A stretch of DNA of 64,000 nucleotides from assembly GCA_018015315.1 (NCBI GenBank), contig GCA_018015315.1_3629.1; one strand, written 5' to 3'. Positions 8,738-23,477 of the stretch are shown here, in pieces; within the stretch, counting starts at the first letter, position 1, and each line of letters opens with the position of its first letter. A program made the translations under genes and the position numbers. A model generated the notes under the pieces. That model saw only the letters and a list, made by a program, of their open reading frames with translations. It ran no database searches and was not told the DNA's origin. The stretch comes from a phage.

Positions 8738-8969
8738 CCTCCTTTGGGAACTTGAATTCTGGCATAGCCGTATACGCTACAACAGGGTTGTGATCAAAGT
8801 AGAACTGACCGTTAATTATCCCGGTTTTGTCCACATAGTTACCAGATCCTGCAAGAACAACCTCGCAAGCTCCGAAATCCACATTGCCATTCTCATCTGC
8901 CATGGCTACAATATACTTTCCTAGAGGCATGTTTTTAACGCCGTCTACAAATGTCCACCCTTTGTTCAT
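8724..8969 (-). CDS. hypothetical protein (81 aa)
   Basis: ORF track. Confidence 0.5.
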   Translation of the reverse strand: MNKGWTFVDGVKNMPLGKYIVAMADENGNVDFGACEVVLAGSGNYVDKTGIINGQFYFDHNPVVAYTAMPEFKFPKEGADV

Positions 8970-8990
8970 AACTTTATCTCCTGGACTTTC

Positions 8991-9323
8991 TTAAGGTAAC
9001 CAGTAAACAATTTCGCCTTTCAGTTCCATGTCGTTACCGACATAGATTTTCCAGCCATCCATTTTAGCCACTGCAGGAGTGAAGTCCGAAGAACCACTAA
9101 CCTCTTTCCAAGTCCCGTAGTCAGGTTGCCAGATATAGAATCCACCTTCCTTGTCCCATGCTCCATATACCACATCGAGCAGGTTGCCCATTGCAACAAT
9201 AGTAGGCCGTGGGAACAATGCATCTACAGATGCGCCACAATATCTAGTATCTTTTAAATTGCACTCCCAAAAGATGTCTGCCAGTGTGGCGGCGATAGCT
9301 TTACGTCTTTCTAATGTTACCAT
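8991..9323 (-). CDS. hypothetical protein (110 aa)
   Basis: ORF track. Confidence 0.5.
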   Translation of the reverse strand: MVTLERRKAIAATLADIFWECNLKDTRYCGASVDALFPRPTIVAMGNLLDVVYGAWDKEGGFYIWQPDYGTWKEVSGSSDFTPAVAKMDGWKIYVGNDMELKGEIVYWLP

Positions 9324-9330
9324 ATCATAC

Positions 9331-9522
9331 TCACTTGTTGTTAATAAGTTCTAAAACTTTCTGTCTTACTTTGTCAAGGTCTGTGGATTCAAAAACTGTA
9401 CGATATCCCCAACTTTGCCCATAGGAGTGACTGCAATCCCCGTAGCACCATTGCTCAATTTGATAGTATTCAAGGAACGGGTGCTGTCTAACTATGATAC
9501 CATCCCGGTTAAAAATTACCAT
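9331..9522 (-). CDS. hypothetical protein (63 aa)
   Basis: ORF track; promoter 9554-9581 upstream. Confidence 0.45.
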   Translation of the reverse strand: MVIFNRDGIIVRQHPFLEYYQIEQWCYGDCSHSYGQSWGYRTVFESTDLDKVRQKVLELINNK

Positions 9523-9553
9523 AATACATCACTCTCTGTTAGTTTATGCATAT

Positions 9554-9581
9554 ATTATACACTGCAGTTTTCAGATGTCAA
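9554..9581 (-). promoter_or_regulatory. sigma70-type promoter
   Basis: -35 TTGACA, 16-nt spacer, -10 TATAAT. Confidence 0.55.
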
Positions 9582-9585
9582 TCTT

Positions 9586-9779
9586 TTACAGGTTACTCCA
9601 GTATAATCGGCATTTACATTTTGGGCAATAAGGTTCTTTTATGTAATAACCATCAGTCTTTGGAACACTTTTTGGTGCAGTTTTAAGATTGTACCTAGTA
9701 AAACATCGGAAGCAGGTTACCTCTCCCACCTGTTGATCGTTGATCCACTCACCAGAGTAAAGCTCTTTCTTGTTTCTCA
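9586..9779 (-). CDS. zinc-ribbon-like small protein (about 64 aa)
   Basis: ORF 9586..9837 trimmed to MRNKKELYSG (SD GGGAGAG); Cys pairs CFRC and CPKCKC. Confidence 0.45.
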
Positions 9780-9806
9780 TAATTCTCTCCCAAATCCTCT
9801 GCAATC

Positions 9807-9977
9807 TTATACCAAAATCTCCAGCCAGAAAGCACACGGGAACACTTTGAGGATTGAATCTTTACTTGGCTCGGAAGTTCTTTTTCCGTATGGTAGGTAG
9901 AAATACCCTCCTGCAGATTCTAACACAGCCCCTTCGGTTGTATCTATCACAGCCAGAATTAAGATTTTAGTCTCCAT
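9807..9977 (-). CDS. hypothetical small protein (56 aa)
   Basis: Hand-translated METKILILAVIDTTEGAVLESAGGYFYLPYGKRTSEPSKDSILKVFPCAFWLEILV; SD GAGGGAG; promoter 10006-10034 upstream. Confidence 0.3.
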   Translation of the reverse strand: METKILILAVIDTTEGAVLESAGGYFYLPYGKRTSEPSKDSILKVFPCAFWLEILV

Positions 9978-10005
9978 AGTGCTCCCTCTCTCAATAGTTG
10001 TGGTG

Positions 10006-10034
10006 ACTATACCATCTCAAAAACCAGCTGTCAA
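10006..10034 (-). promoter_or_regulatory. sigma70-type promoter
   Basis: -35 TTGACA, 17-nt spacer, -10 TATAGT. Confidence 0.5.
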
Positions 10035-10588
10035 CACTTTTTGTACTCCACCACGATAATATCTATATCAAAAGTGGCAAGGTTAATAACGTCCTCTACG
10101 TGCTCCCACTTCAAACCGCCTATGCCGCACCCGATCTTAGGGATGTAGAATGGTAAAGTCGATCCACTGAATACCTCATTGACTAGCTCAAAGCCTTTCA
10201 GGATTGAGAAATATTCAGCATTAGGTCCTGGGTAGAACTGAGTATACAGATTGATTCCGTAGACAATACCTCTCGGAGATAAGTGCTCCCATCGGGAGAA
10301 CGCACCCAGTTTACTTAGGCAACCATGTCTGGTCTCTTTGTCAGCTGCCAATGCTTGAGGGAACTCACGGGCAATCTGTTTTGCTATCCCCTTGCCCATT
10401 GTGTGGAAGCAGTTACAACCGTGGATCAGGTGACCAGCACCACTCTTAAAAAGGGAGATTAAATCTCCCTCTACAGTATCAATAATCACGGTATGCCAGC
10501 TCCTCTTCCACAATTTCAAAAAACTCATCCCAACCTTGTGGCATATTTGAGTTTCCGAAGTGGCTTTCATAGTAAAGGTTCTCACCAC
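10031..10588 (-). CDS. macro-domain protein, Poa1p-like (ADP-ribose processing family)
   Basis: Motif HLIHGCNCFHTMGKGIAKQIAREFP matches recalled Poa1p-type macro signature H-x-CNC...G-x-GIA...P; C-terminal PKIGCGIGGLKWEHVEDV; true start probably internal because 5' end overlaps upstream ORF. Confidence 0.7.
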   Translation of the reverse strand: MVRTFTMKATSETQICHKVGMSFLKLWKRSWHTVIIDTVEGDLISLFKSGAGHLIHGCNCFHTMGKGIAKQIAREFPQALAADKETRHGCLSKLGAFSRWEHLSPRGIVYGINLYTQFYPGPNAEYFSILKGFELVNEVFSGSTLPFYIPKIGCGIGGLKWEHVEDVINLATFDIDIIVVEYKKC

Positions 10589-10904
10589 TTGGGAGATAGA
10601 AATCTGTTACCTCGTAGAGTCCACAATCGTCGCACTCACCTTCTTCGAACTTGGCCTCAACCTTAATACCTAGGAAGGTGAAAAGTTTATGGATATCTTC
10701 AGTTTCGAACTCCCAGCAGATATTGTTTTCCGCATCGGTGTAGAACTGGATCAGCAGACCATTATCCAGTTTACCAAAATATTCTGTGAAGTAACTACCT
10801 TCCCAGAAATCTTTATGACAAATAATATCCATGCGCTTGCCCATGATAAAGGTGTGGGCGTTTTGGGCATCGTCACGAATCAGTTTTGGCATTTCATAGA
10901 TCAT
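10479..10904 (-). CDS. hypothetical protein (141 aa)
   Basis: ORF track. Confidence 0.5.
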   Translation of the reverse strand: MIYEMPKLIRDDAQNAHTFIMGKRMDIICHKDFWEGSYFTEYFGKLDNGLLIQFYTDAENNICWEFETEDIHKLFTFLGIKVEAKFEEGECDDCGLYEVTDFYLPSGENLYYESHFGNSNMPQGWDEFFEIVEEELAYRDY

Positions 10905-10972
10905 CTTAGTTCTCCGGGTTCAACAGGTGGTGGTGCTACAGGAAGATCATAAAACATAGCTATCACAGTCTC

Positions 10973-11170
10973 TTACACAGGAATTGCTTCAAACAGGCCG
11001 TTATCTATACCGTCCTTCAGATAGAGATTATATTCTATGTCGGTATCTGTATAAAGGGCAGCATCCAGCATTCTATCTGTGAGTCCATCCATTGGGTGGA
11101 GAAACCACCACCCACGCCAGTCAAAGTAACAGCCTGGTGCATCTTCTCTTACACGGATTCGATAAATCAT
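10973..11170 (-). CDS. hypothetical protein (65 aa)
   Basis: ORF track. Confidence 0.45.
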   Translation of the reverse strand: MIYRIRVREDAPGCYFDWRGWWFLHPMDGLTDRMLDAALYTDTDIEYNLYLKDGIDNGLFEAIPV

Positions 11171-11266
11171 GGGCAGTGGCCTCCTGTTAGTTATACATCC
11201 CAGTTTTCTTCGTTCATCACGTCCTCCCGTTCTATGAAGTTATAATTGCACACCTTTCCACCTGTG

Positions 11267-11683
11267 TCAACAGAAAACTTCAACAAACTCTTCCACAGTT
11301 TTAATGTCGTGGGAAAAAGGTTTACGGCTATAACGGGCAATAGCACTATCAACCACCGCCCGGTACTCCAAATCTTCAGAATATTTCATGAAGCATTGCA
11401 GCGTCTCTGGGCAGATAGCTAAATAGCTCCACCACCCTTCTTCAGATTGGTAGTCGAATCCCATACTTTCCAACCATGAAGCATATACTCCTGCACCCTC
11501 AAGCCAGTGAGTATTTTCATCCAGAAACTTGTTAATAGACATGTGAGCTTCTAAGCATTTATCCAGCTCTTTTCCGTTAACCAGCCACGCACTGACCGTG
11601 GCGCATCCAAGGTCTACAGATTGAGTTGACAGGTTGTATTGGTCATAGTTCTCAGGTTTAACAATGATATCTTCTAATGTCAT
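11267..11683 (-). CDS. hypothetical protein (138 aa)
   Basis: ORF track; follows terminator 11702-11731. Confidence 0.55.
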   Translation of the reverse strand: MTLEDIIVKPENYDQYNLSTQSVDLGCATVSAWLVNGKELDKCLEAHMSINKFLDENTHWLEGAGVYASWLESMGFDYQSEEGWWSYLAICPETLQCFMKYSEDLEYRAVVDSAIARYSRKPFSHDIKTVEEFVEVFC

Positions 11684-11701
11684 TTTTTAGATCTCCTTAT
11701 A

Positions 11702-11731
11702 CAAAAATGCCCCACCCTTTCAGGCAGGGCT
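11702..11731 (-). terminator. intrinsic terminator after SSB-like gene
   Basis: GCCCUGCC-UGAAA-GGGUGGGGC (G-U wobbles) then AUUUUUG; near-identical to terminator at 21848-21877. Confidence 0.6.
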
Positions 11732-11745
11732 ATGTTAACTAAATG

Positions 11746-12972
11746 TTAAAATGGGATGTCATCATCAAAGACGTACTGTGCTGGATTCTGATCCATCGGG
11801 TCATCTTCCTCATCATTTACAGGAGGGGCGTCTACAGTGTTTTGCTGTGGAGCGGCTTCCTGTTTGGCAGCTTGAGGTTCTTGATGGTCAGTGGACTCAG
11901 CACCGTTCTTGATCCAATCGTACAACGGCTCAGCCAGATTAGTCAAGACATCTTTTGCTTCTGCAGTAATTGCCACTGCAAAATCATCAACTTTCGTTTT
12001 CTTGTCAATACGGCGACAAGCGTTCAACACCGCATTACCGACACTGGCACCTACTTCATCTTCAGTTCGGTTGGTGGCTTGAGCATACTCTTTCTTAAGC
12101 TCAATAGTGACTACGTGTAGTGTTTTAGCCACTCCTAGCGGGTCGTCTACCTTAAACCCGCGATCCAGGATGATTTGCAACGCATTGATGCTATGCCCCG
12201 TTTCCACACCGATAGGGTCGTAAGAGGATTTACGCTTGCCACCAGAGCCTTGAGTGCCGTTCTCTGCCTTAGGAGGATAGGCCTTGAAACCACTGATAAT
12301 GTTTCCGGTGTCTTTGTCAACAATGGCTGCAACACGACCACCTACCACCAGGTCTTTAAGCTGCTCATCAGTTACAACCATAGCACCTTCGCCAATCTTG
12401 TGGTCATTAACAGTAACCACGTTGCCAACAATCTGGGTCACATCACCATAGATGCGTAAAACGTCCTGATTGGCATTCTGCTGAGGTTTCTGCTTCTGGC
12501 CTTGTGATTGTGCACCTTGTTGCTGTTTTTGCTGCTGAGTCGCTGCTGGAGCCTCTCCTGCACCCAGCTTAACCATCTTAGCCAGTGAGCCCTTGTAATA
12601 GGTCTTACCGTTATGCTCGTTTGCCTTCAAAGGGATATTTACGATCCATCCTGGCGTTACGGTTTCCCACTTGTCATCAATCTTAACAGAGACAGAGTCT
12701 TGATGACCTGGTTTAAGCAGCTTATCACCCATGCTGATCCAGACTTCTTCACCAGCTTGAAGCAGGTTATCAGAGGAATCCAGTTCAGAAATCAGTAAAG
12801 AGATGGTGTGGCTGGATTCAATTTTCTTACCTTGCCACACAGTGGTTTTAATACCTGTTGTAGGATCAGCACCTTTGATAGGCTTGATGCTGACACGTTT
12901 AATCATGCCGTGAGCTAGTAAAACAGTTTCACGCGGATTCATCGGGTTAGCGAATTGTTGAATAACGCTCAT
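11746..12972 (-). CDS. putative ssDNA-binding protein with SSB-type acidic tip DDDIPF
   Basis: C-terminus ...YVFDDDIPF identical to E. coli SSB tip; Gln/Gly-rich linker QQQKQQQGAQSQGQKQKPQQ; SD AAGGAG; N-terminal fold not recognised. Confidence 0.6.
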   Translation of the reverse strand: MSVIQQFANPMNPRETVLLAHGMIKRVSIKPIKGADPTTGIKTTVWQGKKIESSHTISLLISELDSSDNLLQAGEEVWISMGDKLLKPGHQDSVSVKIDDKWETVTPGWIVNIPLKANEHNGKTYYKGSLAKMVKLGAGEAPAATQQQKQQQGAQSQGQKQKPQQNANQDVLRIYGDVTQIVGNVVTVNDHKIGEGAMVVTDEQLKDLVVGGRVAAIVDKDTGNIISGFKAYPPKAENGTQGSGGKRKSSYDPIGVETGHSINALQIILDRGFKVDDPLGVAKTLHVVTIELKKEYAQATNRTEDEVGASVGNAVLNACRRIDKKTKVDDFAVAITAEAKDVLTNLAEPLYDWIKNGAESTDHQEPQAAKQEAAPQQNTVDAPPVNDEEDDPMDQNPAQYVFDDDIPF

Positions 12973-13337
12973 TATTTATCTCCTTGTTCTTCGTTAGTGT
13001 TTGCCGTGTGTGCAAACCCTGCTTGAATTAATTTGTCCTGAACTTGAGCCAACAGGCCCATTGCAAAACTTGTAGTCCCAGAGAGGGCCATCAGCATATC
13101 TCGTTGTTGAGCTACCCAACCTAAGGCATAGTCCAAACGACGATATTTTTCTTCTTCACGCAGAGCCTGGAATAATTGTTCAGCCTCTGGCTGTTGTGTA
13201 AGCTCCTGAAGTCTTCCCATGAAAGAAGAAAGCACTAGCAGAAGAGACACTTGATCTTTACTTAACCCTAAGAAAAATTCTTGAGGTTGTTCTTGCTCGT
13301 TCATCGCAACCGACGTTTGATCGTTCATTTGTTCCAT
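12972..13337 (-). CDS. hypothetical protein (121 aa)
   Basis: ORF track; stop overlaps SSB start (TAATG). Confidence 0.5.
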   Translation of the reverse strand: MEQMNDQTSVAMNEQEQPQEFFLGLSKDQVSLLLVLSSFMGRLQELTQQPEAEQLFQALREEEKYRRLDYALGWVAQQRDMLMALSGTTSFAMGLLAQVQDKLIQAGFAHTANTNEEQGDK

Positions 13338-16162: not shown

Positions 16163-18940
16163 TTAGTGACAATCACCCCAGTTACGACCACACAAGTATT
16201 CACCTGTGATCTGGAACGGGACTCCCATCATTTTAGAAGCTTGCCAGAAGCAATGCACCACCATTTCACCCACAGGGCTCCAGATAAGTTCAAGCTTTCC
16301 GTCATCGTTCAGGATAGGATCGTACACCGTGTTTCCGTCTCTGTCAACCACTTCGTTTCCGTTTTCATCCTTGCGTGCCTTTTTGTACTTATGACCGTCA
16401 AACACATGAAGTTTGGACTCCTGCTCTGCCTTAAATGCTTCCAATTCTTCAATTGTGTCGAAGGTGTACACAGTCTTATACTTAGGCGTGTCAGGGACCT
16501 GAAGTTGGTACTCATCATGGTAATAAATAATACGACGAACACCTTCATCGTACCACCCACGCTTCACCATTTGGTGGTGCATGAGTATCCCAACTAAGTC
16601 ACACAACGATGCACCACCATTTTGTTGGTATGCATTAAGTAAAGAGTGTTTAGATCGGGTCCAGATAGCATGACCATCAAAAGAGTAGATAAACTTCTTA
16701 CCCGTTGCTTCCCAGAATTTCTCCAGATCCTCTTTACGCCCTTTAAGACCAGGGTTGGCATCCCAAAGCGCATCGATTACCCTTTGCCCCAACTCTGGGG
16801 AGATATCCAGCATGTCTGCAACTTTATCTTTTTGTGCCCCATACATAACCCCGTACGTGATAGGTTTACCGTCGTTACGAGACACCTCTCTACCTGCTAC
16901 TTTCGTATATGCCTCAGCATTGTTTTGGTGGGCATCCCCGTTACTTACAACATCGTAATACAGGCCGTTGTCGAACTCAAAGGCACCCCAAGCCCCGATA
17001 AGCTGCTCTAAGTTGGACCCGTCAATACCGATCTCAAAGTATCCTGGAGGAACACCCCACAGACTGCGCATCTCTTTACCCATAACCACTTTAGGAGATG
17101 GTTTAGGCATGTTTGCACAAATACTGTGTTTCTGTCGGGAAGTGTTTGTTAATCCAGAACTTTTAGCAGGGAGCTTATGGTCAATCTTCAAACGTGGGTG
17201 ATTAAGAAGACCAGTATCAACCTTATCCTCCTTGATTGGATCAAGGACCGATCTGCGATTTCGCAATGATAACCACAAGACGATATCTTTAGCCATCTCT
17301 CCGTTCAATTTTTCAAGATTTGGGCATAGGTGTCCAAACGTATCTTTCAGCTGCGGAGAAGTAATAAGTGCTCTGGCTTTTCTACGTATTTTCCCGAATA
17401 CTTCCTTTTTAATCCTTTCGGAGTTAGGAAAGCTTCGGAACTTGTGCACTGTTGTCTGAAACTTAGCATCAGTTTTGTTCCAGAAGTTGATAATTAGATC
17501 ACAATACTCTGACTCTAAAAGCTCGTCCATGTATGCATATACTCGTGCATCAACATCTGCATCAGGTAGAGCTTTCTTCTTGCTGTCTTTAGTTACATCC
17601 TTAGTTCTCCACATTGTCGGAAGCCAACCAGCACTGATCAGGTATCGCTTAATGTCGTCCTGATTGCTGATTTTCATAGGTATCTTGCAGTCCGGCATTC
17701 GCTTCTGCTGTAGATCACTTATTGCCTGATCCATCAGCTCTTTAGGTAAAGGTTGTGGTGTGGAAGTGCCCTTAATATAGCCTCTCAAGAAATCAGCCAT
17801 CTTATCAAGGTCTTTGCAGCCCATCTCTTCACACCATTTTATCCCCATCTTGCTGACATCTCCTGTGGAGGTAAATGCTCGCTTAGGCGGGGCTTTGAAC
17901 TCTAAAGCACTCATGTCCACAGGATAGCCAAGCTTATCTTTTAACCATTTCCAACCATTGTTGGAGATTGTCCCATCTTGGTTAAACGGCTTTTCAGGGA
18001 ACTTGGGCCGCTGAGACATTGACAGCTCTTTTAAAGGAAGTTGAGGTTCAACACGATCAGCGATTTCTTTCATCCACGCATCGCAACGGTCACGTAAAGC
18101 AATAGCTCCATCTATGTCGAAGTATACACCCTGACGGGCCTGCAGCTCCATCAGGAAGTGCTGCAGCATGCCTCGACGTAGTGCGTTCTTCCAGGTGATC
18201 TTCTTGAACCCTTTCGGCTTCTCTTTGGCTGGATCGTACATAAAGTTCTGCATGTCAGATTTGCCGTAGAATACACCTTTTGATTCCGCTACCAGCTCTT
18301 TCCAGAGCAGCTCCTGGATGATAACGTCCTCGAATACACGATCCACATACTTCCACAACGGAAGATCGCGCCAGTCATCAATTTGAACTTTCTGGTTACC
18401 AAGGGCGTAGCCCCATGCCATAAGGCCGTGAGGACCAACAGGCTGCATTTTCTTAGTAACCGGGTTGAATACAGAGTCCGGACAACCTTTTGGTAAAGGG
18501 CGATCAGGCCACAAGATTCGGCTCATCGCCAACGTATCAAACAGGTTAACCTGGTGGTCGTTGATAGTCCCCATACATTTAGGATCACGGAACATATCAA
18601 AATGAATACCGGATAATCTCTCCATCAGCATAAAGTCATAACTGTAGCAGTTATGGCAGTTCAAAGCTGTTGGTGACCAGTCGGAATTGCCTGTAAGCCA
18701 ACCCTCCAACTCTGAAAAATCTGCTATGCGAACTTCAAAATCCTTATAAAGAGTTTTCTTTGCCAGAATAAAGTTCTTAGCCTTCTCTATATCCTCCTCG
18801 GAGTAGTGTGTGCGGTCATTCAGAGGAAGGAACAGCATAAAACGGTTCTTATTCAACGCTTTAAACAGGCCGCAGTGATAATAAAGGTCTGGATCTTCCA
18901 AAAGCCCAGAGGCCTCAAAATCGAAGCTATACATACTCAT
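16163..18940 (-). CDS. DNA polymerase, family A, with 3'-5' exonuclease domain
   Basis: Exo I FDFEASGL; Pol A motif B RNDGKPITYGVMYG; motif C YYHDEYQLQV; 925 aa; SD AAGGAG 8 nt before ATG. Confidence 0.9.
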   Translation of the reverse strand: MSMYSFDFEASGLLEDPDLYYHCGLFKALNKNRFMLFLPLNDRTHYSEEDIEKAKNFILAKKTLYKDFEVRIADFSELEGWLTGNSDWSPTALNCHNCYSYDFMLMERLSGIHFDMFRDPKCMGTINDHQVNLFDTLAMSRILWPDRPLPKGCPDSVFNPVTKKMQPVGPHGLMAWGYALGNQKVQIDDWRDLPLWKYVDRVFEDVIIQELLWKELVAESKGVFYGKSDMQNFMYDPAKEKPKGFKKITWKNALRRGMLQHFLMELQARQGVYFDIDGAIALRDRCDAWMKEIADRVEPQLPLKELSMSQRPKFPEKPFNQDGTISNNGWKWLKDKLGYPVDMSALEFKAPPKRAFTSTGDVSKMGIKWCEEMGCKDLDKMADFLRGYIKGTSTPQPLPKELMDQAISDLQQKRMPDCKIPMKISNQDDIKRYLISAGWLPTMWRTKDVTKDSKKKALPDADVDARVYAYMDELLESEYCDLIINFWNKTDAKFQTTVHKFRSFPNSERIKKEVFGKIRRKARALITSPQLKDTFGHLCPNLEKLNGEMAKDIVLWLSLRNRRSVLDPIKEDKVDTGLLNHPRLKIDHKLPAKSSGLTNTSRQKHSICANMPKPSPKVVMGKEMRSLWGVPPGYFEIGIDGSNLEQLIGAWGAFEFDNGLYYDVVSNGDAHQNNAEAYTKVAGREVSRNDGKPITYGVMYGAQKDKVADMLDISPELGQRVIDALWDANPGLKGRKEDLEKFWEATGKKFIYSFDGHAIWTRSKHSLLNAYQQNGGASLCDLVGILMHHQMVKRGWYDEGVRRIIYYHDEYQLQVPDTPKYKTVYTFDTIEELEAFKAEQESKLHVFDGHKYKKARKDENGNEVVDRDGNTVYDPILNDDGKLELIWSPVGEMVVHCFWQASKMMGVPFQITGEYLCGRNWGDCH

Positions 18941-22377: not shown

Positions 22378-22773
22378 TTATTCCTGAAAAGCAACGATAT
22401 CATATGCACTTACCAATGATTCCGGTGAAGAATGACTCCAGTCCAGGTTATCAGAGTATCCAGCGTGCTGTGCACCGCTACGTAGTTTGTATTTTACCCA
22501 CTTACCTGGTGCAGGGTTTTCACCACCTTCCCATGCTTCCCAGTCTTCTGACAGGCCGTCCTGAGAGCAGTCATCCACTTCACTGATAATCTTAGGGTTT
22601 GGCACCAAGATCCCTGCAGGCTCCTCCTTCCGGATAAGTGTCCACACAGCGTAGGTGTCTGAGCAGGCGCATGATAGCAAAGTATATCCACTATTTAGAA
22701 CTTCTGCAAGCTCTTTTTCAGCATCTTCCAATTTGGTTAAGTGGTATTGGATAATCTTCACACCTGTAATCAT
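22378..22773 (-). CDS. hypothetical protein (131 aa)
   Basis: ORF track. Confidence 0.5.
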   Translation of the reverse strand: MITGVKIIQYHLTKLEDAEKELAEVLNSGYTLLSCACSDTYAVWTLIRKEEPAGILVPNPKIISEVDDCSQDGLSEDWEAWEGGENPAPGKWVKYKLRSGAQHAGYSDNLDWSHSSPESLVSAYDIVAFQE

Positions 22774-23075
22774 CAGAAACCTCCCACTTCTTCAGCAAAT
22801 GCAGCTGCTGTCGTCGCTGCATCCAGATAGGACTCTAGTTCACGGGCTGCACGTTTGTAAATTGAGTGGCGCACATCGTTTGGCAATTGGTGGAAGTCCA
22901 CCTCTTCACCGTTGTGGTAAACATGCACATCGGTAATTTGTCTAAATCCGTAATAGTCAACATCAGAATCACGACACTCTGGGTCTGGCAACTGGACAAC
23001 TGCCTGAGCTTCCACAGTGAACATATCGTCAAGTTCGAAATCGATTTCAAAAGTGTATGGTTTATAACGTTTCAT
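22773..23075 (-). CDS. hypothetical protein (100 aa)
   Basis: ORF track. Confidence 0.5.
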   Translation of the reverse strand: MKRYKPYTFEIDFELDDMFTVEAQAVVQLPDPECRDSDVDYYGFRQITDVHVYHNGEEVDFHQLPNDVRHSIYKRAARELESYLDAATTAAAFAEEVGGF

Positions 23076-23135
23076 CGTTTAGTGCTTCCTTAGTTTTTGT
23101 GGGGAGGAGTGCCTCCCCTTTAGACTAACATCTTA

Positions 23136-23477
23136 CTACTGAAGGTCTTCAGAGTCAAGCTCAAAAAGAATCAAACTGTGCATGCTTGCAGAGAGATCAA
23201 CGCACCCTGCAATAATAAGGGTCTGATAGTAAGGTTCAGCACCCTCAATGTCTTCGTTAAAATCTACAACAAGATAGTCACCTTTGTTAAAGATGTATTT
23301 GTCCGATGTAAACGCAAAACCTGCCCAGTCCCCTACTGCAGGATCTTTATCAGTCACCTTTGTTAGCAGTAGGTCTTTTTCACGAGATCTTTTAGTAAAA
23401 TCGTGAATCACAACATCCTTCTCTTCAGGAGTTGGACTACCACACACGTAGTTAACTATATTTCTCCACAAACTCAT
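23136..23477 (-). CDS. hypothetical protein (113 aa)
   Basis: ORF track; 4-nt overlap with helicase gene. Confidence 0.5.
   Translation of the reverse strand: MSLWRNIVNYVCGSPTPEEKDVVIHDFTKRSREKDLLLTKVTDKDPAVGDWAGFAFTSDKYIFNKGDYLVVDFNEDIEGAEPYYQTLIIAGCVDLSASMHSLILFELDSEDLQ

Follow-up and report, generated by a model that had tools for sequence, protein, structure and literature searches.

What does a phage gain from a small, stand-alone macrodomain protein encoded in the arm of its genome that carries the replication genes? The question is raised by a minus-strand gene in a 64,000-nucleotide (nt) stretch of phage DNA (NCBI GenBank assembly GCA_018015315.1, contig GCA_018015315.1_3629.1), the whole of which we call the window. 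An earlier reading made from the letters alone (the sequence-only reading) described the gene as a Poa1p-type macro domain among early genes, perhaps serving counter-defence against host ADP-ribosylation or removal of phosphorylated ADP-ribose by-products. The underlying observation is real: the gene encodes a macrodomain of the class that contains Poa1p, and counter-defence is likely. The description is refined here to a 152-amino-acid (aa) protein of a Tk.4/AdfM-like lineage, with glutamine at the catalytic-lysine position and with DarT2 as the best-supported target. On our analysis, the protein would be a stand-alone ADP-ribosyl hydrolase, ALC1/TARG1-like and of the Tk.4/AdfM lineage, and its most likely role, to which we give about an even chance, would be counter-defence against a DarT2-type toxin.

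The open reading frame (ORF) originally proposed, 10031..10588 on the minus strand, is present in the window and is the maximal ORF, 185 aa long from an upstream GTG. Its start had been flagged as ambiguous, and the maximal ORF does overlap the upstream gene, but the ambiguity can be resolved: judging from the sequence, the start is the GTG at 10487..10489, giving a 152-aa product beginning MIIDTVEGDL. The features involved are as follows.

10031..10489, minus strand: macrodomain gene, 152 aa, GTG start, TGA stop; relative of T4 tk.4/adfM
10500..10505, minus strand: Shine-Dalgarno sequence GAGGAG, read from the sequence, with a 10-nt spacer to the GTG start
10490..10588, minus strand: extension of the maximal ORF, non-coding in the macro frame and lying inside the upstream gene in another frame

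The start is set by four observations: all three annotated records (FFH2, BP9 and CarlMeissner) have a 459-nt macro gene equivalent to 10031..10489; GAGGAG lies upstream; the N-terminus of the Krischvirus ortholog, ATGATTATTGATACTGTA, aligns with the window reading GTGATTATTGATACTGTA; and the sole in-frame ATG of the 5' extension is not kept in CarlMeissner. The extension has no counterpart in any macro homolog. The 185-aa version was dropped in favor of the 152-aa gene on the start used by the annotated relatives and the loss of the ATG in CarlMeissner, and residue numbers throughout refer to the 152-aa protein.

The 3 kb around the gene are 97.6% identical to Escherichia phage FFH2 and share 95–96% identity with about 120 further Vequintavirus (rV5-like) genomes. 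The ratio of nonsynonymous to synonymous substitution rates (dN/dS) against the CarlMeissner ortholog is 0.07–0.12, which indicates purifying selection. We note that 16 GenBank records labeled "Campylobacter phage", with host C. jejuni (MG065658, MG065661, MG065682 and 13 others), are about 95.6% identical over the 3-kb query; these are probably mislabeled or contaminant genomes. Truncated macro alleles of 92–121 aa occur on Vequintavirus-like contigs of about 135 kb (P0017, P0020, P0037 and P0053), and P0017 fuses the C-terminus of the upstream ORFan with the macro N-terminus; the gene would then be broken occasionally, unless these are sequencing frameshifts. The BP9 record (PP488543.1) carries about 12 kb of lambdoid genes (integrase, Exo VIII, DnaT-like and Ea22) at 126–138 kb and lacks the polymerase region, so that this "complete genome" looks chimeric; FFH2 replaced BP9 as our annotated reference genome because of this lambdoid end.

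The protein matches the Pfam Macro family (PF01661) with 27.7 bits, against a gathering cutoff of 22, and phrog_335 ("phosphatase") with E 1.8e-59. It has 93 homologous protein clusters, and tblastn matches to it occur in 2,784 of 50,697 phage records, so that chance resemblance can be set aside. A macro fold was sought by structure prediction and was found: the AlphaFold2 model, with a predicted local distance difference test (pLDDT) score of 96.9, has the three-layer alpha/beta/alpha architecture. The top Foldseek match is human TARG1 (template modeling score 0.78–0.85). In the class comparison, the figures were 18.9 for BT1257, 18.3 for both Mycobacterium tuberculosis DarG and Poa1p, 17.4 for TARG1 and 17.1 for Thermosipho DarG, and 13.7 or less for coronavirus, alphavirus, MacroD, PARP and other macrodomains; a family-wide profile also picks up the five named proteins, with E values of 1e-16 to 6e-14. 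The protein is therefore a member of the ALC1/TARG1-like class (TARG1, DarG, SCO6735/BT1257 and Poa1p), clearly apart from the MacroD, viral and PARG types. The label "Poa1p-type" is correct at the level of the class, because the nearest neighbors in sequence and structure belong to the ALC1/TARG1-like class, which contains Poa1p, and the N-terminal motif is indeed Poa1p-like (LIHGCNCFHTMGKGIAKQIAREFPQA, aligned with Poa1p); however, we see no ground for placing the protein nearer to Poa1p than to DarG or SCO6735. Among NCBIfam models it matches antitoxin DarG (DarG2, NF048014) best, with 47.3 bits against an equivalog cutoff of 250. This score far under the cutoff, together with the lack of a catalytic lysine and of a second domain, rules out a DarG equivalog.

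The motifs named in the sequence-only reading are all present, the third extending over the following glutamate (10103..10141). The active-site elements are listed here, with correspondences taken from alignments.

10409..10423, minus strand: active-site motif H23-G-C-N-C27; H23 and N26 correspond to SCO6735 H24 and N27, and G24 to V25
10382..10396, minus strand: phosphate-binding loop 1, G32-K-G-I-A36; K33 corresponds to SCO6735 K34
10211..10252, minus strand: N80-L-Y-T-Q84-F-Y-P-G-P-N-A-E-Y93; Q84 corresponds to SCO6735 Q85, with a short PGPN loop as in T4 Tk.4
10106..10141, minus strand: diphosphate-binding loop 2, P117-K-I-G-C-G-I-G-G-L-K-W128; P117 and G120 are invariant

Across 81 homologs, G24, N26, G34, A36, N80, Q84, P117 and G120 are invariant, and H23, Y82, T83 and G88 are at least 90% conserved; both glycine-rich ADP-ribose/diphosphate loops (G32-K-G-I-A36 and G120-C-G-I-G-G125) are thus present and invariant or nearly so. 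In HMMER and MAFFT alignments, Gln84 falls where DarG and TARG1 have their catalytic lysines (K80 and K84, respectively), a substitution that the window protein shares with SCO6735 and BT1257; the Poa1p residue at this position is serine. At this position, then, the sequence-only reading is not specifically supported. Gly124 aligns with TARG1 Asp125 and with Poa1p F152. Among the residues mutated in Poa1p, whose roles we take from the titles of PDB entries alone, H23 is kept, S30 becomes T30 and F152 becomes G124. Following the glutamine, a short FYPGPN loop replaces the HGMKTGSKGAP of SCO6735.

SCO6735 efficiently removes DarT-made ADP-ribose from thymidine in DNA and rescues cells from DarT; its Q85A mutant is inactive, and H24Y and N27S mutants were also constructed (PMC9411070). 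The mechanism proposed for it is water-mediated and lysine-independent, with the backbone of Val25 positioning the catalytic water, and its extended mobile loop together with K89 was proposed to act as a DNA clamp (PMC9411070). Chemistry of this glutamine type is plausible for the window protein, because a Gln85 enzyme cleaves thymidine-linked ADP-ribose from DNA and H23, N26, K33 and Q84 align with their SCO6735 counterparts.

The closest characterized homolog is T4 Tk.4, with 39% identity over the full length (E 2e-40), and a protein of Krischvirus Delraymugoa is 69% identical. The Delraymugoa gene lies between vs and tk, which is the position of tk.4 in T4. The window protein and Tk.4 have in common the motifs HGCNCFHTMG, NLYTQFxPGPNxEY and IG(C/A)GIG, and glutamine at the catalytic-lysine position. 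A neighbor-joining tree of 73 sequences with 100 bootstraps groups the window and Krischvirus proteins in 71% of replicates, while deeper nodes are unsupported. According to a preprint of November 2025, no T4 gene other than tk.4 is depleted on a DarTG2 host, and a clean knockout sensitizes T4 to DarTG2; the gene was accordingly named adfM, for anti-DarT factor Macrodomain (bioRxiv 10.1101/2025.11.20.689424). A lysine-type macrodomain, gp104 of phage PhiKZ, which was independently named AdfM, strips DarT2-made ADP-ribose from DNA (PMC13309987).

The counter-defence suggested at the outset is thus the best-supported reading, given that the homolog Tk.4/AdfM is reported to be needed against DarTG2. 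The substrate is inferred to be thymidine-linked ADP-ribose on DNA, and the target system would be DarTG2. DarTG systems are native to E. coli strains such as enteropathogenic E. coli and C7, which fits the host range. In the mechanism that we envisage, infection would activate a host DarT2-type toxin, which would ADP-ribosylate thymidines in single-stranded DNA and block replication. The phage enzyme would bind the ADP-ribose moiety through its two glycine-rich loops and cleave the thymine–ribose bond, yielding free ADP-ribose and phage DNA that can again be replicated. The predicted chemistry is lysine-free and of the SCO6735 type, unlike the lysine mechanism of DarG and TARG1: Gln84 would orient the substrate in a site lined by His23 and Asn26, where the water would be positioned by the Gly24 backbone carbonyl. 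The protein has no DarT-binding domain of the DarG type, and it would therefore act only by erasing the mark.

Several observations weigh against this assignment. The clade of the window and T4 proteins has no confident support in the neighbor-joining tree, and the 39% identity to Tk.4 is only modestly above the 33–36% identity to macrodomains of the Adpp type discussed below. The T4 result comes from a preprint and consists of a plaque phenotype alone, with no enzymology (bioRxiv 10.1101/2025.11.20.689424). The extended mobile loop of SCO6735, and the K89 that follows its glutamine, are absent from the window protein. The class is promiscuous, SCO6735 (PMC9411070) and TARG1 acting also on proteins and on RNA carrying uridine-linked ADP-ribose (U-ADPr). 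Finally, bas54_0092, the counterpart of the gene in the Vequintavirinae phage Bas54, showed no depletion in the one HIDEN-SEQ host comparison consulted, which did not involve DarTG2. The AdfM assignment is thus favored rather than proven, on the grounds that Tk.4 is the closest characterized homolog, that there is a positional ortholog, and that NARP1 genes are absent.

The last of these grounds bears on the main rival to DarT2 as the target, which is ADP-ribose-1''-phosphate (ADPR-1''-P) phosphatase activity. Here the protein would be a Poa1p/Adpp-like phosphatase converting to ADP-ribose the ADPR-1''-P that arises from RES-type NAD+ phosphorylases (aRES) or from RNA 2'-phosphotransferase pathways; we regard this as unlikely. 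Removal of such a by-product, which the sequence-only reading had also put forward, has a real precedent in phage Adpp. A preprint of January 2026 reports that macrodomains in NARP1 operons are ADPR-1''-phosphate phosphatases, after which NARP1 rebuilds NAD+ following phosphorolytic cleavage of the RES type, and that a member from Vibrio phage Gary dephosphorylates ADPR-1P and is needed against aRES (bioRxiv 10.64898/2026.01.28.702374). Phage macrodomains of the same broad family as the window protein are found in NARP1 operons (Thalassa gp184, an Acinetobacter phage and a Pakpunavirus), and these Adpp-type proteins are 33–36% identical to it; among the tblastn matches, Vibrio phage Thalassa has the order Adps, macro (gp184), Namat. 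As a separate observation, the NARP1-linked macro genes of other phages adjoin an RNA ligase gene. Phosphatase activity is also favored by the retention of Poa1p H23, by the conservative replacement of S30 by T30, and by public records, which often label the gene "phosphatase"; that label, however, derives from the old A1pp domain name and not from an assay.

Adpp acts within the NARP1-AP pathway, where it feeds ADP-ribose to Adps and Namat, and has no described role without them. Neither the window nor the complete FFH2 genome, both of which were searched, shows this context: tblastn with three Adps and three Namat queries gave only E values above 1 in both, compared with 1e-15 to 1e-115 for controls, and neither gene is annotated in FFH2. 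The window contains no tRNA genes, and no tRNA-splicing context was found that would call for a by-product phosphatase of the Poa1p type. Poa1p F152 is replaced by Gly124, and by identity the closest characterized homolog is Tk.4 rather than Adpp. In each of the three NARP1-linked examples the loop that follows the glutamine is longer and the sequence GLAG(G/E)DW is present, whereas in the window protein, as in Tk.4, the loop is the short PGPN form and the other motif reads GIGG. We have nevertheless not relied on the long loop and GLAGG as a marker of Adpp versus AdfM, although they occur in three of three cases; the signature is not diagnostic, because the long loop also turns up in members from a bacterial chromosome, an RNA-repair cluster and a NUDIX–NAMPT neighborhood.

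The promiscuity of the class raises another alternative, namely that the protein is a broader or different eraser, removing ADP-ribose from protein or RNA, or acting on the O-acetyl-ADP-ribose made by the phage's own Sir2-like enzyme, with DarT2 not its specific target. This has some chance of being correct: TARG1 and SCO6735 also hydrolyze protein-linked ADP-ribose, O-acetyl-ADP-ribose and U-ADPr RNA (for SCO6735, PMC9411070), some records annotate the gene as O-acetyl-ADP-ribose deacetylase, and many distinct ADP-ribosylating defences exist, for example CmdTAC. FFH2 also has a cluster of RNA ligase, Sir2-like NAD-dependent deacetylase and nucleotide pyrophosphohydrolase genes at 66.7–69.5 kb, outside the stretch corresponding to the window. 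On the other hand, some 50 kb separate the Sir2 gene from the macro gene, and T-even phages, which carry tk.4, show no co-conservation of the two; the adenine-linked ADP-ribose that CmdT places on RNA is described as irreversible, and the sole known phenotype in the Tk.4 lineage is against DarTG2 (bioRxiv 10.1101/2025.11.20.689424). We note separately that this cluster and the macrodomain together give the phage lineage several enzymes that handle NAD or ADP-ribose.

The layout around the Bas54 counterpart is exactly that of the window: a 459-nt gene with an 11-nt overlap with a 426-nt gene, followed by genes of 171, 195, 192 and 333 nt; orthology was assigned from this synteny and these gene sizes, not from sequence. 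In the HIDEN-SEQ data, all 31 TA sites of bas54_0092 took insertions (31 of 31), and the gene is classed as non-essential on E. coli K-12, which carries no DarTG. Dispensability on K-12, together with a dN/dS of about 0.1, gives the macro gene an accessory character, which we count in favor of counter-defence. It is conceivable that the protein is not an enzyme but binds or sequesters ADP-ribose-derived immune signals (e.g., Thoeris-type) or a host protein, or that the gene is decaying and has no current role; in favor are that some macrodomains act as readers only, that P0017, P0020, P0037 and P0053 are truncated or fused alleles, and that growth on K-12 does not require the gene. The chance of this appears very slight, since the residues critical in SCO6735 (His, Asn, Gln and both glycine loops) are invariant or nearly so in 81 homologs, purifying selection on the gene is strong, and loss of the T4 homolog has a phenotype (bioRxiv 10.1101/2025.11.20.689424).

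In FFH2 the macro gene lies in a long minus-strand arm that carries rIIA, rIIB, helicase, primase-helicase and DNA polymerase genes and then small ORFs; in the window, some 5.7 kb separate it from the DNA polymerase gene (16163..18940), which lies upstream. None of the five small ORFans tested in its immediate neighborhood has a Pfam or PHROG function, and the flanking genes are all "hypothetical" in FFH2. A consensus scan of 8900..13200 found 15 sigma-70-like sites, against 8.0 ± 2.8 expected. The neighboring gene and the sites nearest to the macro gene are the following, those upstream of it coming from the same scan.

10479..10904, minus strand: upstream 141-aa acidic ORFan (pI 4.2), phrog_8157, unknown function, with an 11-nt overlap with the macro gene
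11027..11055, minus strand: sigma-70-like promoter candidate, TTTATA-17-TATAAT, 10/12, upstream of the ORFan/macro pair
11242..11270, minus strand: sigma-70-like promoter candidate, TTGACA-17-AATTAT with TG, heading the run of small genes that includes the macro gene
11709..11730, minus strand: terminator-like hairpin, 9 bp, 6 GC, with a T-tail, after the gene for a 408-aa protein
10006..10034, minus strand: extended -10 promoter-like site, 11/12, overlapping the macro stop codon and upstream of a 56-aa gene (9807..9977)
9554..9581, minus strand: perfect sigma-70 consensus, TTGACA-16-TATAAT, 12/12, upstream of a 63-aa gene (9331..9522)

The 11-nt overlap suggests that the ORFan and the macro gene are probably co-transcribed and translationally coupled. 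The homologs of the ORFan form four clusters, restricted to Vequintavirus-like contigs, and its AlphaFold2 model, with pLDDT 47.5, is too poor to use; conceivably the ORFan acts together with the macro protein, for example as a DNA-mimic inhibitor. The hairpin is a likely upstream boundary of the macro transcription unit, and the sites at 9554..9581 and 10006..10034 suggest many small independent early transcription units. As a pattern match, the arrangement fits early transcription of the macro gene by the host polymerase. The "early gene" context that had been claimed thus has near-consensus promoter-like sites and a position in the replication arm on its side, but the timing itself we only infer.

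Some further features of this region and its surroundings are recorded here. The 408-aa protein (11746..12972, minus strand) has a Gln-rich low-complexity center and is unannotated in all related records; bas54_0087, its Bas54 counterpart by synteny, is scored Essential in HIDEN-SEQ. A small ORF at 9586..9837 (minus strand) matches Pfam PF23903, "Phage zinc binding domain" (E 1.4e-21), and relatives annotate a shorter, 195-nt version. The DNA polymerase gene at 16163..18940 (minus strand) is intact, encoding 925 aa, whereas the FFH2 copy is split by an HNH endonuclease insertion. The interval 22773..23136 leaves no room for the 1,326-nt methyltransferase gene of FFH2 and CarlMeissner, which in those genomes lies between a 396-nt gene with an adjacent 306-nt gene and a 342-nt gene.

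The gene is already annotated publicly as macro domain, phosphatase or O-acetyl-ADP-ribose deacetylase; because its class was thus on record and a function has been reported for the T4 homolog, our finding refines rather than opens the question. Vequintavirus phages infect a broad range of hosts and serve both against E. coli O157 and as components of therapy cocktails. If the anti-DarT2 role is correct, rV5-like phages carry a ready-made eraser of DNA ADP-ribosylation by DarT2, which would help to explain or predict their host range on clinical E. coli that carry DarTG, and a second E. coli phage family enters the AdfM story. The glutamine-for-lysine site, as in Tk.4, would be a convenient system for studying a lysine-independent mechanism so far described only for SCO6735. 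A wider proposal, which we regard as a long shot, is that the short-loop glutamine-type phage macrodomains (Tk.4, the Vequintavirus protein and many more), present in about 5% of phage genomes, form a mechanistically distinct, lysine-free branch that erases base-linked ADP-ribose on nucleic acids. Their specificity might extend beyond DarT2 marks, to thymidine-linked ADP-ribose on DNA, U-ADPr RNA and ADPR-1''-P, so that one small enzyme would blunt several NAD+-based defences, and in Vequintavirus the coupled ORFan could serve as a DarT-binding DNA mimic, like the second domain of DarG or AdfB.

Among known systems, Poa1p and Adpp differ in having, respectively, serine at the glutamine position with Phe152 at Gly124, and, in the NARP1-linked examples, a long loop. 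TARG1 is of the same class and removes thymidine-linked ADP-ribose from DNA, but its catalytic dyad K84/D125 is Q84/G124 in the window protein. Similarly, Gln84 stands in place of K80 of T. aquaticus DarG and K78 of PhiKZ gp104, and DarG2 has a C-terminal DarT-binding domain, whereas the window protein is a single domain of 152 aa with no adjacent darT. SCO6735 and BT1257, the ALC1-like proteins that share the glutamine, are only 21–26% identical to it, and loop 2 of the SCO6735 type reads GLAGG where the window protein has GIGG. Another known system comprises T4 Tk.4/AdfM and the tk.4 genes of Straboviridae; T4 Tk.4 differs in its GKGNW, where the window protein has GGLKW, and in its neighbors: tk.4 is flanked by vs and tk, while the window gene follows an acidic ORFan found only in Vequintavirus, in the replication arm. 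In size the two proteins are equal, each is a single macro domain, and they are homologous over their full length.
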